This document shows positions 2,499 to 52,540 of a stretch of DNA of 64,000 bases, piece by piece (position 1 is the stretch's first letter; each line of letters starts with the position of its first letter). This stretch comes from Microbacteriaceae bacterium. Its GTDB lineage: Bacteria > Actinomycetota > Actinomycetes > Actinomycetales > Microbacteriaceae. Below the pieces are notes generated by a model that worked only from the letters and a program-made list of their open reading frames with translations, made no database searches and was not told the origin of the DNA. The translations under genes and the position numbers were made by a program. The DNA is taken from contig CBFHZN010000003.1 in the NCBI GenBank assembly GCA_965660355.1, forward strand, positions 40,211-104,210, in the 5' to 3' direction.

Positions 2499-2531
2499 GA
2501 AAATAAAAAGCCTATCTCAGAAAGACAAGCT
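2499..2531 (-). terminator. Rho-independent terminator after the tail tube gene
   Basis: Minus strand reads AGCTTGTCT-TTCTG-AGATAGGCT (9 bp stem with two G-U pairs) followed by TTTTTATTTT. Confidence 0.55.
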
Positions 2532-2557
2532 TTTTTATTATTTTTTAAAAATACATT

Positions 2558-3046
2558 TTAGTAATTCAAGATACAATAGTCAGGTTGAACAGTCATTGTA
2601 ATGTTTACTGCTGTCCCATCATCATCCCAGTTATAATCACCAAATGATGCCTCTGTAATTAATGCTCCTTTTACAACCCATTCAGAAACTATATCACCTA
2701 CTGGGCCTACAACATTGAATGTTAAATCTTTCTTATAAAAATCAGAATACCCATCTCTACCAGTTACAGATTCGTGATGTAAACGAACCCATTCCATTAC
2801 GGATTGTGCTCCTGATGGAGTGATAGGATCAAATAATGTAAATTGGATTGTCCCCCATGTTGTTTTTCCTTTTACAAAACGTTGAATATTAATGTGGTTA
2901 AGAGCAACCGGTGTTTGTGATAGTGTTACCGCACCCATCCCTTTTACTAGGTATGAAGGAATACCATCAATATATAATATAAAGCGGTTTGTTTGTTTCG
3001 GTTCAAACGCTGTAAAAAAGATTTCATTTGGATTTAATACTGCCAT
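2558..3046 (-). CDS. Tail tube protein (T4 gp19-like)
   Basis: 162 aa, directly downstream of the sheath genes. N-terminal ..NRFILYIDGIP.. pattern and size are typical of the contractile-tail tube family. Confidence 0.7.
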   Translation of the reverse strand: MAVLNPNEIFFTAFEPKQTNRFILYIDGIPSYLVKGMGAVTLSQTPVALNHINIQRFVKGKTTWGTIQFTLFDPITPSGAQSVMEWVRLHHESVTGRDGYSDFYKKDLTFNVVGPVGDIVSEWVVKGALITEASFGDYNWDDDGTAVNITMTVQPDYCILNY

Positions 3047-3072: not shown

Positions 3073-3082
3073 TTATAAATAT
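3073..3082 (-). promoter_or_regulatory. Conserved 10-mer TTATAAATAT (plus)
   Basis: Exact copy between sheath paralog 2 and the tube gene, 26 nt upstream of the tube ATG. Confidence 0.45.
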
Positions 3083-3098: not shown

Positions 3099-4832
3099 TT
3101 AAACAGGGAAACTAGCTCCTGTTGGTTGAATGATAAAATCTAAATTAATAAATTCTGCTGTTTTAGTTGGTTGTATATAGATTTGACCCACTAATTGATT
3201 TCTATCTACCACATCTGGGGTGTTGTTTGTATCATCCATTATTACTTTAAAGGCATATAAACCTTCTTTTTGTTTAATTCTTTCCAAGTATGGATTTACG
3301 GTTGTTAAGAATTTATTTTGAGTTGTTAAAGTGTTTTGTTCAAATACTAAAGTATCTGCTACTTGTCCAATGTATGATTTTAATTCAATTAACAATCTTC
3401 GTACATTTACTCTATCTAAAGCTGATGATTCTTTTTGTAATGTTTTTTGCCCTGCTATAGAAACCTGATTGTCTTTAGTGGAAATAGGGTTAATATTATT
3501 ATCATATAAATCATTTTTAGAGGGTTGTGATAATTTGTATTCTGCTTTTTGGATAGTATTTAAACCTCCTCTATTTAAACCAGCGGGTGCGAACCATGGA
3601 GCTTTAACTCTATCATTAAATGCATATACTCCCCCTATTACAGTTGAGGCCGGTACCCATACAAGTTTCCCAGTTTCCGGATCTTGCATTCTAACCCAAG
3701 GCCAATAAGTAGCAGCATATGATGAATTCTTGCTTTGTGCTTGGGTTATTGCAGCAGTTCTTGTTGAACCATGTACTGTCATATCAGGAATATAAATGCT
3801 ATCTCCTCGTTCTTGAGTATTTGATATAATAGTATTAATAACTGATGAGTGTTCCGTGTCTACTAATCCGGGTGTTAATAACACATTAAATTTATAATCC
3901 TGGTTGTTTGAAAGTAGATTTACCATGTTTGTGTAATCAGCCGCTACTACTCCTTGGGTTTGTGTTGATATATTTTCATAAAAATTAGCCCCGGATGCAA
4001 CCTCCCCATCTGCTCCATCAAATGAATTATTTTGGAAAGGTGGTATAGTTCCAACATATGTTGGGTCTGGTAATCCATTTGCATCTAAATAGTTAGGGGT
4101 ATTTTTTAATACTTCTTTTATTCTAATATATTTTGAGGCGTTTGGGTAATTACCAGATATCACCTCTACTTGGTTTGTTGTTGGATTATAACCCATTTCT
4201 TCATCTCCTATTACTTTAGAAATGTAATTTGGAGAGGTTGGGTCTAAATTTACTCTATTGAAAGATTCTAAAATTACTTTATCATTCTCTCTATCGTTTC
4301 CTCTTCTTACTACAACATTAAATGTTCCTGATGCTGTTGAAGGATTAGTTATTTCTATACGTAAGTTATCAACAGTTCCATTAGATAATACACCACTAGC
4401 ATCAACAGATCCTGAACTATTCATTATAATCCCTTCGGATATTGTTTCTATTGTAAATACTATATCATTTGTTGTGTATGAATTATTTACGTATCCATTT
4501 ACTATATAACTACCACTTTCTACAACATCAAGTTCTGCGGATGTGAAAGATCCACTTGCTACTCGAGCAACTAATAATGAATTTCCTCCGGAATTAAAAT
4601 AATTAAAAGCGGAAATAGAAGTGAAATATGAATATGAATCACTGCCACTTATAAGAGATCCTCCAAATACATTTTTATAATCTGAGTATGAGGTTACTAA
4701 TGTTGGAAGTTCAACAGGTCCTTTTACTGTTGGGCCTATAATTGCTGCTCCTACTTTAGTAGGAAGTGGAGAATTAAATGATTGATCTAATTCGTTTAAG
4801 GTTACGCCTGGAGATGATGATAAGTTTGCCAT
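3099..4832 (-). CDS. Tail sheath protein, paralog 2 (T4 gp18-like)
   Basis: 577 aa. C-terminal block ALDRVNVRRLLIELKSYIG...DDTNNTPDVVDRNQLVGQIYIQPTKTAEFINLDF matches the gp18-family C-terminal signature. Confidence 0.9.
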   Translation of the reverse strand: MANLSSSPGVTLNELDQSFNSPLPTKVGAAIIGPTVKGPVELPTLVTSYSDYKNVFGGSLISGSDSYSYFTSISAFNYFNSGGNSLLVARVASGSFTSAELDVVESGSYIVNGYVNNSYTTNDIVFTIETISEGIIMNSSGSVDASGVLSNGTVDNLRIEITNPSTASGTFNVVVRRGNDRENDKVILESFNRVNLDPTSPNYISKVIGDEEMGYNPTTNQVEVISGNYPNASKYIRIKEVLKNTPNYLDANGLPDPTYVGTIPPFQNNSFDGADGEVASGANFYENISTQTQGVVAADYTNMVNLLSNNQDYKFNVLLTPGLVDTEHSSVINTIISNTQERGDSIYIPDMTVHGSTRTAAITQAQSKNSSYAATYWPWVRMQDPETGKLVWVPASTVIGGVYAFNDRVKAPWFAPAGLNRGGLNTIQKAEYKLSQPSKNDLYDNNINPISTKDNQVSIAGQKTLQKESSALDRVNVRRLLIELKSYIGQVADTLVFEQNTLTTQNKFLTTVNPYLERIKQKEGLYAFKVIMDDTNNTPDVVDRNQLVGQIYIQPTKTAEFINLDFIIQPTGASFPV

Positions 4833-4850
4833 TTTTTATTTTGGGTTTTA

Positions 4851-4860
4851 TTATACATAT
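4851..4860 (-). promoter_or_regulatory. Variant of the 10-mer (TTATACATAT)
   Basis: One-mismatch copy 18 nt upstream of the ATG at 4832. The same variant occurs at 47064..47073. Confidence 0.3.
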
Positions 4861-4867
4861 TAGGAAT

Positions 4868-6619
4868 TTATTCAAAAGTAACACCTGATGGAGTTATGTT
4901 GAATTCTAATTGTATAAATTCTACGGTTTTTGTAGGTTGGATGAATATCTGACCGATTAATAGGTTATTATTTACAGCTGATGGGGGGTTGTTTGTTTCA
5001 TCCATTATTACTCTAAAGTCATCTAATCCTTCTCTTTGTTGAACTGATGATAAGTAAGGATTAACTTGTGATAAAAAATCATTTCTAGTAGATGTTGTAT
5101 TTTGTTCAAATACTAAACCTTCTGCTACTCTACCGATAAAAGATTTTAACTCAATTAATAGTCTTCTTACGTTTACTCTATCTAAAGCTGATTTTTGTTT
5201 TTGAAGAGTTTTTTGTCCAAATACTACAACTCCTAAAGTTGGGGAAGTTATTAATGGATTTACATTCGCTTGATATAGAGCATCTCGGGTTGTTTGCTGT
5301 AGTTTTCTTTCAGCTCTTAATATTGTTGGTAATAATCCTCTAGTGGTTCCAGCAGGTGCTATCCAAGGCTCAGAAACACTATCATTAAATGCATATACTG
5401 AGGGGATTATAGTTGATGCTGGGATCCATATTTCTTCTCCAGTATTTGGGTCTAATGTTTGTAACCAAGGCCAGTAAGTAGTAGCATAAGTGTTATCAAT
5501 TGAGTTTGTTGAGGAGATGGTTGGGATTAGCATACTACCATATTCTACAGTATCTATAATAGCCATAGTATCCCCTCTTTCTCTACATTTTGTTATTAAT
5601 GATGTAATAACTGGGGTGTGAGTTGCTAAACTACTTATTAATCCTGGGGTAGAGATATATTTGAATTGGAATTCTTCTTTATTTCCTAAAAGGTTAATTG
5701 AGGAGGTATAATCACTAGCTTGTAATCCCTGGGTATTTGTGTTGTTGATAGAGCTATAATAATTTCCTACTCCAACAGGTAAGTTGGATCCTATAGCCCC
5801 ATTAAAGGAATTTTGTTGAGTAACAGGGATAAGTGAGGTAAAGGCAGCTACAGGGTCTCCATTATTATCTAAATAATTAGGGGTTTTTGTATTTACATTA
5901 CTTACTCTAACATAATTTGATTGATTAGAATAATTACCATTTGATTCTAAATAATAATCAGCACCATCATTAACTATACTGGTGGTTTGATTTCCTATTA
6001 CTTTTTCAATATAGTTAGGGGAGAATGGGTCTAATGATAAATTACTCCATGTTTCTAAAACTATTGGGGAATTTGTGTTATCATCTCCTCTTCTAATTAA
6101 AAGTGTAAATTCACCTGAGGATGTATTAGGGGAGGTTATTTGGATTCTTAAGTTATCTTGAGTTCCATCTGTTAAAGCCCCATTTGGGAGGAGAGAGGAT
6201 GAGGAGTTCATAATTAAACCTTCACTTAAAGTCTCTAAAGTAAATGCTATATCAGATGTTGAATATCCGGGTACAACATATCCTCCACTTATAAAAGTAT
6301 TGTTTGATATAACATCAAGTTCTGAGGGAGTAAAAGAACCACTTGTTACTCGAGTAACTAATAAGCTAGTTCCTCCCCTTTCAAAATAGTTATATGCTGA
6401 AACGGAGGTTAGGTAAGTGTATACTTGACTTCCACTTGTAAAAGTAGTTCCAAATTTATTGATGTATTGGGAATATGAAGTAACAACTGTGGGACTTTCT
6501 ACAGGACCTTTAACTGTAGGCCCCACAATTGCTGCTTGGATTTCGGGTGGTTGTTGTGTTATAAATGATTGATTATTTTCATTTAATACAACTCCAGGGG
6601 ATAAGATTGTTTCTGCCAT
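4868..6619 (-). CDS. Tail sheath protein, paralog 1 (T4 gp18-like)
   Basis: 583 aa. Collinear with 3099..4832 over its full length (by eye more than half identical), with the same C-terminal signature ALDRVNVRRLLIELKSFIG...IFIQPTKTVEFIQLEF. Confidence 0.9.
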   Translation of the reverse strand: MAETILSPGVVLNENNQSFITQQPPEIQAAIVGPTVKGPVESPTVVTSYSQYINKFGTTFTSGSQVYTYLTSVSAYNYFERGGTSLLVTRVTSGSFTPSELDVISNNTFISGGYVVPGYSTSDIAFTLETLSEGLIMNSSSSLLPNGALTDGTQDNLRIQITSPNTSSGEFTLLIRRGDDNTNSPIVLETWSNLSLDPFSPNYIEKVIGNQTTSIVNDGADYYLESNGNYSNQSNYVRVSNVNTKTPNYLDNNGDPVAAFTSLIPVTQQNSFNGAIGSNLPVGVGNYYSSINNTNTQGLQASDYTSSINLLGNKEEFQFKYISTPGLISSLATHTPVITSLITKCRERGDTMAIIDTVEYGSMLIPTISSTNSIDNTYATTYWPWLQTLDPNTGEEIWIPASTIIPSVYAFNDSVSEPWIAPAGTTRGLLPTILRAERKLQQTTRDALYQANVNPLITSPTLGVVVFGQKTLQKQKSALDRVNVRRLLIELKSFIGRVAEGLVFEQNTTSTRNDFLSQVNPYLSSVQQREGLDDFRVIMDETNNPPSAVNNNLLIGQIFIQPTKTVEFIQLEFNITPSGVTFE

Positions 6620-6632
6620 TTAGGGTGTTTTG

Positions 6633-6642
6633 TTATAAATAT
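6633..6642 (-). promoter_or_regulatory. Conserved 10-mer TTATAAATAT (plus)
   Basis: Exact copy 13 nt upstream of the sheath paralog 1 ATG. Confidence 0.45.
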
Positions 6643-6645
6643 TGC

Positions 6646-6909
6646 CTAAAGAGGGGATATTTCACCTGTGTTTGGGTCTATATTACAATCTCCATAAGTT
6701 TTAGAAAGGTTTTCTGAGAATGTTGTTTCGTCTTCTTTTAATTTTTCCATAAATTCTTCTGCTTGTTTTCTTCTTTCAGCAATTTGAAATTTTAGGATCT
6801 CGATTTGTCCTAACTCCATTGTTAGAGATTGAGAGCGTTGTTGGATATCTTTAAGGGTATCCATTTCCTCTTGTGTTAATTTTTTTGCTTCTGTTTGTAA
6901 ATTTTCCAT
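6646..6909 (-). CDS. Hypothetical coiled-coil protein
   Basis: 87 aa ORF with charged heptad-like sequence, preceded by the 10-mer. Confidence 0.5.
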   Translation of the reverse strand: MENLQTEAKKLTQEEMDTLKDIQQRSQSLTMELGQIEILKFQIAERRKQAEEFMEKLKEDETTFSENLSKTYGDCNIDPNTGEISPL

Positions 6910-6928: not shown

Positions 6929-6938
6929 TTATAAATAT
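6929..6938 (-). promoter_or_regulatory. Conserved 10-mer TTATAAATAT (plus)
   Basis: Exact copy 19 nt upstream of the ATG at 6909. Confidence 0.45.
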
Positions 6939-6943
6939 AATAA

Positions 6944-7447
6944 TTATTTTGATGTTTGCCAATCTTTTTGTAAGTCTAAGTATTTTTGTTGATCATCAGG
7001 GGTCATTTCCCACCACTTATCCATTTTCCAAACCCATCCCGTAAGTTGTGAGCATATAAGTCGTTTTGTTTCTAAATCCTCCCCATTAAATTTATATTTT
7101 TTTGTTATAAGCTTCCAGGGGATACGGAATATAAAAGTAAACAAATCATATTTTACTTTTCTTCCCACTATTGAAATTGCTCTTTTTGCTATGCTTTTAT
7201 ATTCTTGGGATGCATTGATATTTCTGTAGATTATATATTCATATCTCCACTTAGATTTCCACTCCTCTAGAGTATTTAATTCAACTCCTTTACGTTGCAT
7301 ATCAACAATATACATCCTACCCCAAATTTCTATAGCTATTGCAGTATGGGAATATTTTGAGTTTGTTGCTTTTCTAATTATGTTACTAAGTAAGCTATTC
7401 CTACTACATATTAGAATATCACCATGTTTTATTTTATTATCTTCCAT
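6944..7447 (-). CDS. Permuted papain-fold peptidase, YiiX/YaeF (C92)-like; candidate cell-wall hydrolase
   Basis: 167 aa. HGDILICSRNSLLSNIIRKATNSKYSHTAIAI ... KYDLFTFIF ... LICSQLTGWVW has the His-before-Cys order and spacing of the C92 family. Confidence 0.45.
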   Translation of the reverse strand: MEDNKIKHGDILICSRNSLLSNIIRKATNSKYSHTAIAIEIWGRMYIVDMQRKGVELNTLEEWKSKWRYEYIIYRNINASQEYKSIAKRAISIVGRKVKYDLFTFIFRIPWKLITKKYKFNGEDLETKRLICSQLTGWVWKMDKWWEMTPDDQQKYLDLQKDWQTSK

Positions 7448-20379: not shown

Positions 20380-20389
20380 TTATAAATAT
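20380..20389 (-). promoter_or_regulatory. Conserved 10-mer TTATAAATAT (plus)
   Basis: Exact copy 12 nt upstream of the ATG at 20367. Confidence 0.45.
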
Positions 20390-21104: not shown

Positions 21105-21114
21105 TTATAAATAT
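21105..21114 (-). promoter_or_regulatory. Conserved 10-mer TTATAAATAT (plus)
   Basis: Exact copy 14 nt upstream of the phoH ATG and downstream of the MCP terminator. Confidence 0.45.
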
Positions 21115-27726: not shown

Positions 27727-27736
27727 TTATAAATAT
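27727..27736 (-). promoter_or_regulatory. Conserved 10-mer TTATAAATAT (plus)
   Basis: Exact copy 19 nt upstream of the ATG at 27707. Confidence 0.45.
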
Positions 27737-43031: not shown

Positions 43032-43041
43032 TTATAAATAT
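43032..43041 (-). promoter_or_regulatory. Conserved 10-mer TTATAAATAT (plus)
   Basis: Exact copy 14 nt upstream of the ATG at 43017. Confidence 0.45.
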
Positions 43042-52530: not shown

Positions 52531-52540
52531 TTATAAATAT
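52531..52540 (-). promoter_or_regulatory. Conserved 10-mer TTATAAATAT (plus)
   Basis: Exact copy just downstream of the 817-aa gene stop and upstream of 51798..52394. Confidence 0.4.

Follow-up and report, generated by a model that had tools for sequence, protein, structure and literature searches.

Two adjacent tail-sheath genes in an environmental phage: candidates for a two-component contractile sheath

The contractile sheath is the textbook homopolymeric molecular spring. A metagenomic contig of a large, uncultured phage from water encodes two sheath proteins side by side, and we ask here what one tail would do with both. The DNA analysed is a stretch of 64,000 nucleotides (nt), called the window in what follows, from positions 40,211-104,210 of contig CBFHZN010000003.1 (C3) in GenBank assembly GCA_965660355.1. 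Its two sheath genes are named U (upstream) and D (downstream). Both are intact and homologous, they belong to two conserved clades, they evolve under purifying selection and they share expression signals. We infer from this their presence in the virion, their co-assembly and their arrangement there: U and D would be working sheath subunits of one tail, together forming a two-component contractile sheath.

Two complete sheath proteins

U occupies 4868..6619 (583 amino acids, aa) and D, which adjoins the tail tube gene, occupies 3099..4832 (577 aa), both on the minus strand. The first-pass annotation, made from the letters of the window, had read these frames as two intact, collinear, full-length gp18-like proteins, and each part of that description was borne out. 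Both frames are present at exactly these coordinates. In a BLASTP comparison the proteins align end to end with 309 identities in 583 positions (53%), 71% positives and nine gap positions. PHROG 23 (‘tail sheath’) covers the whole length of each, with E values of 7e-71 for U and 7e-68 for D (residues 5-575), and the Pfam family Phage_sheath_1C (PF17482) scores 40.4 bits in U and 39.8 bits in D, above its gathering score of 26.9. The subtilisin-like sheath domain PF04984 reaches 35.1 bits in U (cut-off 31.4). It was not listed for D at E <= 0.01 in the Pfam scan; close D orthologues have precomputed PF04984 matches.

Structures were predicted with AlphaFold2 from a 97-row family alignment, leaving out the row of the closest cultured relative, vB_FspM_immuto (immuto in what follows). 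The models have a predicted local distance difference test score (pLDDT) of 88.3 and a predicted template modelling score (pTM) of 0.86 for U, and of 86.3 and 0.84 for D. Disorder is limited in both models to residues 1-24, as expected of the N-terminal arm, which a sheath subunit contributes to an adjoining one. In Foldseek searches of PDB structures the top match of the U model is T4 gp18 (E 4e-29), and the D model matches a contractile injection system sheath (E 1.6e-26) and T4 gp18 (E 7.5e-26); at E <= 1e-3 the matches include more than 100 sheath chains. U and D are gp18-type contractile sheath proteins. T4 gp18, the best structural match of U and among the best for D, has the same domain order and is likewise encoded upstream of the tube gene, gp19; the differences are that T4 uses a single gp18 for its whole sheath and that sequence identity to it is 17-21%.

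Divergence between U and D is uneven along their length. The ends had been described as conserved and the centre, taken as the surface domain, as divergent, which holds as a trend, although the size of the contrast is modest: counted per 30 residues, identity runs at 50-70% in residues 1-210, drops to 27-47% in 211-390 and recovers to 53-80% in 391-570. The best-conserved stretch, residues 481-510 (80% identity), lies in the C-terminal helical region. Both proteins keep the flexible N-terminal arm, the strand-exchanging C-terminal domain and the conserved C-terminal helices, and with a complete gp18-type architecture in each, both could enter the sheath lattice.

Conservation and history of the pair

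The pair is not peculiar to C3. A scan of IMG/VR gave 465 stretches encoding relatives, from which 80 loci were kept (numbered with the prefix L below). Both copies are visible at a length of at least 430 aa in 29 of the 80, and of the loci with a visible copy from just one of the two clades, most are truncated by a contig end. A sheath tree was built with IQ-TREE, its root placed with Microcystis phage Mel-JY01 and an uncultured phage of 484 kb. In this tree 32 rows fall in the U clade (support 100/98) and 30 in the D clade (support 100/100); the subclades of the two are congruent, and no confirmed single-copy locus falls within either. The ratio of non-synonymous to synonymous substitution rates (dN/dS), calculated by the Nei-Gojobori method over 11-12 orthologue pairs, ranges from 0.07 to 0.27 in U and from 0.09 to 0.29 in D, so the two are under similar purifying selection. 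The tandem pair also occurs on a 160,677-bp JGI contig (that of L086), a 54,650-bp ENA scaffold and Logan contigs, and its recurrence across assemblies made independently (JGI, ENA, Logan, IMG/VR) excludes an assembly artefact. In a collection of 5.8 billion proteins the family numbers at least 8000 members at E <= 1e-50; the matches listed at this threshold are all from metagenomic sources, none of them named after a cultured phage.

Two regions vary among the orthologues. The N-terminal arm of the D clade reads MANFT.SPGV..sEIDNT.LTG, while U and the single-copy phages share the ancestral-looking arm MAETL/IxSPGVLA.ENDQSF. The second region is an insertion of ~90-220 aa that follows about residue 100-125, at a matching surface site across orthologues. 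It is present in U only (L046, L054/L055, L058, L068), in D only (L014, L035) or in both (L067, L083), U, D and single-copy sheaths having gained or lost it independently of one another; in immuto (L001) it spans residues 92-243. A Pfam scan of the insertions of the longer orthologues and of immuto returned no family. The insertion may be a surface decoration domain.

Immuto (genus Immutovirus, 160 kb, infecting Flavobacterium) resembles the C3 phage in its order of small gene, sheath, tube, hub and tape measure, and its sheath shares 49-51% identity with U and D. It differs in having a single sheath, 709 aa long with the extra inserted domain, which branches below the U/D split. The other basal lineages of the rooted tree are single-copy too. 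A node with support 99/98 then separates a D side (98/98), comprising the D clade, the single-copy group L033-L042 with L069, and the first copy of L025, from a U side (83/80), comprising the U clade, the single-copy loci L011/L012/L048, the pair of L019-L021, and the second, 799-aa copy of L025/L071. U and D are thus not sister clades, as a tandem duplication in place in their immediate ancestor would make them, and the approximately unbiased (AU) test rejects uniting them as one clade (lnL difference 31.6, p = 0.021), the p value being borderline and the group having been defined after the tree was seen.

A tree of the tube gene served as a proxy for the history of the module. The two-sheath phages form one group in it; nearest to them are the U-side single-copy phages, then L025/L071, with the D-side single-copy phages further out. 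U tracks this tree and is therefore the probable resident copy. D has its nearest relatives in a more distant phage lineage with one sheath per phage. The earlier label of tandem paralogs accordingly survives for adjacency and paralogy, and loses its implication of local duplication, since the trees favour an older duplication with losses, or capture. D probably does not stem from a recent local duplication; it would be a duplicate of old date that several sister lineages have lost, or else a gene captured from a related phage. An old duplication needs four or five independent losses together with a changed gene order, and capture by the ancestor of the U/D phages is the more parsimonious account because it needs fewer events. 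The qualifications of the AU test given above weigh against this account of the origin, as does the length of the tube alignment, which has only 162 columns.

Further loci show other histories. In L019-L021 (3561-5921 and 6001-7710) the two sheaths are sister copies of 787 aa and 573 aa from a younger, lineage-specific duplication; they are 72% identical over their C-terminal 490 residues, one having grown to 787 aa. L025 (6001-7698 and 7715-10111) and L071 carry a pair in reversed order, with a D-side protein of 568 aa first and the 799-aa protein, on a very long branch, second. The sheath of L082 (2320-4029, tube from 4112) is a long basal branch, while its tube falls within the two-sheath clade; the mismatch is either a long-branch artefact or the result of sheath/tube gene exchange.

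Expression signals and genomic setting

The two sheath genes are co-directional, with 35 nt between them, and the tail tube gene (2558..3046, minus strand, 162 aa; PHROG 4542 ‘tail tube’, E 3.5e-21) lies directly downstream of D. Each sheath gene was said to have its own copy or variant of an intergenic 10-mer, and this proved correct. The late-promoter-like motif ATATTTATAA (6633..6642, minus strand) starts 23 nt before the start codon of U, and its variant ATATGTATAA (4851..4860, minus strand), within the U-D spacer, starts 28 nt before that of D. A further copy of ATATTTATAA stands upstream of the tube gene (3073..3082, minus strand). The first terminator-like signal after U, D and tube is a hairpin followed by the U-run UUUUUAUUUU (2505..2535, minus strand; -14.6 kcal/mol, z = -3.3). 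A generic terminator scan did not pick up this hairpin, which was found by direct folding; direct folding of the U-D and D-tube spacers found no secondary structure there.

Written as ATAT[T/G]TATAA (ATATKTATAA), the motif occurs 18 times in the window against 3.4 copies expected by chance, and 17 of the 18 are on the coding strand; on the whole of C3 the count is 30 on the coding strand and one on the other. It stands almost always just upstream of a start codon (from 1030 to 62786 in the window; for example at 20380-20389, 21105-21114, 27727-27736, 43032-43041 and 52531-52540), and it is kept at matching places in distant relatives. Its position, strand bias and conservation mark it as late-promoter-like, and the phage group probably uses it as its late promoter. 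A scan for the sigma-70 consensus gave 24 sites against 31.6 in shuffled controls. Among orthologues of the sheath genes the motif lies 19-35 nt upstream of the start codon in all 31 of the U genes and in 28 of 29 of the D genes, the lone exception being at a contig end. The G that distinguishes the D motif of the window is not conserved: nearly all D orthologues carry ATATTTATAA, and the G variant turns up before some U orthologues. With three stacked late-promoter-like elements and one terminator, U, D and the tube gene would be co-expressed, being transcribed together late in infection.

On the minus strand the gene order continues from U, D and tube to the baseplate hub (PHROG 150). The sheath genes are preceded by a conserved 87-aa gene (6646..6909, minus strand) with its own motif copy at 6929-6938; the same slot holds an 87-aa gene in L086 and a 91-aa gene in immuto. 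Two genes upstream of the sheath pair, a 167-aa protein (6944-7447, minus strand) has as its sole match PHROG 1128, ‘enoyl-CoA hydratase/carnithine racemase-like’ (E 3e-12). The equivalent slot of immuto holds a lysozyme.

The window lies inside a contig of 114,848 bp that was placed in a 1.69-Mb genome bin of 155 contigs. C3 has 31.6% GC throughout, and the other large contigs of the bin have 44-48%. All of its genes are on the same strand and the whole 115 kb is phage-like; in the window lie genes for a major head protein (PHROG 138, E 3e-65), for a head-tail adaptor and for tail fibres, as well as for the tube protein and the baseplate hub. C3 is a phage contig mis-binned into a metagenome-assembled genome (MAG) of 47% GC, and the taxonomy of the bin is therefore uninformative on the host of the phage. 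Two other identities were considered for the element. A prophage of the MAG is ruled out by the missing host-like flank and by a GC content 16 points below the rest of the bin. An extracellular contractile injection system (eCIS) of the Afp/PVC type would be a tail-only cluster lacking capsid and packaging genes, and C3 encodes capsid genes.

A probable sheath of two proteins

What the two proteins might do together can be judged against systems in which more than one sheath protein is known. In the first-pass annotation typical myoviruses had one sheath protein and sets of paralogs came from eCIS, which is incomplete, a two-component phage sheath being known from PaBG and its relatives (PMC7412058). 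The PaBG sheath proteins gp76 and gp213, which are 38% identical, were both found in the virion proteome (Evseev et al. 2020, PMC7412058), and where that article cites Kurochkina et al. 2018 (Virology 515:46) the sheath pair of the PaBG/Lu11 group is attributed to duplication. Evseev et al. 2022 (PMC9230969) also state that some phage genomes encode two sheath copies. U and D resemble the PaBG/Lu11 case in that a myovirus has two full-length sheath paralogs of shared fold (about 57-58 kDa each in PaBG) and keeps the pair across a phage group. They differ in several respects: the PaBG genes lie far apart in a jumbo genome, whereas U and D, at 53% identity, are adjacent in phages of roughly 160 kb; both PaBG proteins were identified in the virion, whereas the virion presence of U and D is deduced from the genes; and duplication has been proposed for PaBG/Lu11, whereas the U/D trees argue against a simple lineage-specific duplication. 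Descent of U and D from the PaBG/Lu11 duplication was rejected, the sheaths of Lu11 and HRDY3 being 23-24% identical to U and far outside its family. On these sequence comparisons the U/D pair is of independent origin from the PaBG/Lu11 two-component sheath.

Second sheath genes are uncommon among phages at large. A tblastn search of U against 50,697 phage records gave 2747 matching places in 2679 records, and at most about 2.5% of the sheath-matching records have a second sheath place. Among the matches listed, two separate sheath-like places are found in each of the jumbo-phage records LT598654.1 (NCTB), NC_017972.1 (Lu11), PQ015379.1 (HRDY3) and LR756508.1, so second sheath genes recur in several unrelated large phages; identity to U is 23-24% for Lu11, HRDY3 and NCTB and 40% for LR756508. 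Our literature search found no paper on the present pair in Immutovirus-like or Flavobacterium phages. In the literature searched, PaBG/Lu11 was the only phage group with a two-protein sheath, and no high-resolution structure of such a sheath was found. A two-protein phage sheath is thus already known, from PaBG, and U and D are an independent case, in a different phage family and in adjacent genes, the pair being fixed across a very large clade from the environment.

The eCIS sheath sets are Pvc2/Pvc3/Pvc4 and Afp2/Afp3/Afp4 (PMC12546770; PMC6899500). In PlPVC1, an injection system of Photorhabdus, Pvc4 forms the initiator ring and is followed by alternating layers of Pvc2 and Pvc3, with Pvc2 at the top (PMC12546770). 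The likeness to U and D is that gp18-fold paralogs encoded side by side, upstream of or around the tube genes, build one sheath. The differences are that eCIS are bacterial injection devices lacking capsid genes, whereas the U/D locus belongs to a phage that has genes for the major capsid protein, the neck, the tube, the hub and fibres, and that eCIS paralogs, at about 350-420 aa, are much shorter and differ in domain content, whereas U and D match each other in architecture.

Both genes are functional and old; they are inherited together and equipped for joint expression, which speaks for both proteins being used in the tail. To that extent the first-pass suggestion of a heteromeric sheath, a specialised terminal ring or alternative sheaths is upheld; its last option, and with it a dispensable copy, is not. 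We lean, with modest confidence, towards a two-component sheath in which U and D are both part of the trunk. The likeliest arrangement would have both as bulk components, for instance in alternating hexameric layers like those of Pvc2 and Pvc3. A mixed trunk is preferred to a special ring because U and D have equal size and domain content, because their dN/dS values are similar and because the surface insertion occurs in U, in D or in both. Three points count against this assignment. No cultured phage with the U/D pair turned up in our searches. Strictly diagnostic positions between the U and D clades number nine (at 85% or more), and of the changes from the basal single-copy consensus five are U-specific, eight D-specific and eight shared; with so few diagnostic sites and so symmetric a divergence there is no sequence signature of a special interface. 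Lastly, the promoter-like motif also stands ahead of many other late genes and is therefore uninformative on protein abundance.

A bolder version, set in a large clade of uncultured Immutovirus-like phages that is abundant in the environment, combines an obligate U/D hetero-polymer in alternating layers with capture of D from another lineage and with two-sheath tails arisen at least three times in the group, namely in the main U/D clade, in the L019-L021 pair and in the reversed-order L025/L071 pair. As a whole we regard this combination as tentative and somewhat doubtful.

The strongest competitor to a mixed trunk is a positional division of labour, in which one paralog forms the trunk and the other forms one or a few special rings, either the baseplate-proximal initiator or the neck-proximal terminal ring, in the manner of Pvc4/Afp4. 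Such a dedicated initiator sheath protein exists in PlPVC1, namely Pvc4 (PMC12546770). The D clade moreover has an N-terminal arm of its own, whereas U keeps the ancestral-looking one, and it is by the arm that a subunit docks onto the neighbouring layer or the adaptor. On the other hand U and D are equal in size, domain set and constraint, whereas the initiator and trunk proteins of eCIS differ in extra domains; the surface insertion, found in either protein or in both, suggests that both are exposed along the tail; and T4-type phages need no more than one gp18 for the two ends of the sheath. Sequence alone does not choose between a mixed trunk and a specialised ring, and the evidence on neither side is decisive, but we think the ring rather unlikely.

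Tails made of either U or D, according to condition, host or virion subpopulation, are improbable. Such a switch might use the separate promoter-like motif of each gene, the D motif of the window being a variant with G at position 5; yet this G is not conserved among D orthologues and occurs before some U orthologues, and no regulatory difference between the genes is visible. Transcripts from the U promoter would, moreover, read into D, since the genes are co-directional and 35 nt apart with no terminator between them. That one copy is redundant, decaying or an artefact, whether a recent duplicate or strain variants joined by mis-assembly, might be suspected of a contig from a metagenome bin in which it was mis-binned, but this is effectively refuted by a split old enough for 53% identity and a near-saturated dS (about 1.0), by both frames being intact in at least 29 independent contigs from several assemblers and sources, and by purifying selection on both copies.

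If U and D do build one sheath, theirs would be a second two-sheath design, of independent origin and fixed throughout a very large family of phages from the environment. The clean orthologous sets of U and D lend themselves to co-expression, to structural work and to coevolution analysis. Should D have been captured from another phage, this would show that a core lattice protein can be acquired laterally and nevertheless fit into the machine, and if two-sheath tails did arise repeatedly in the group, heterotypic sheaths would seem to confer a selective advantage that recurs.

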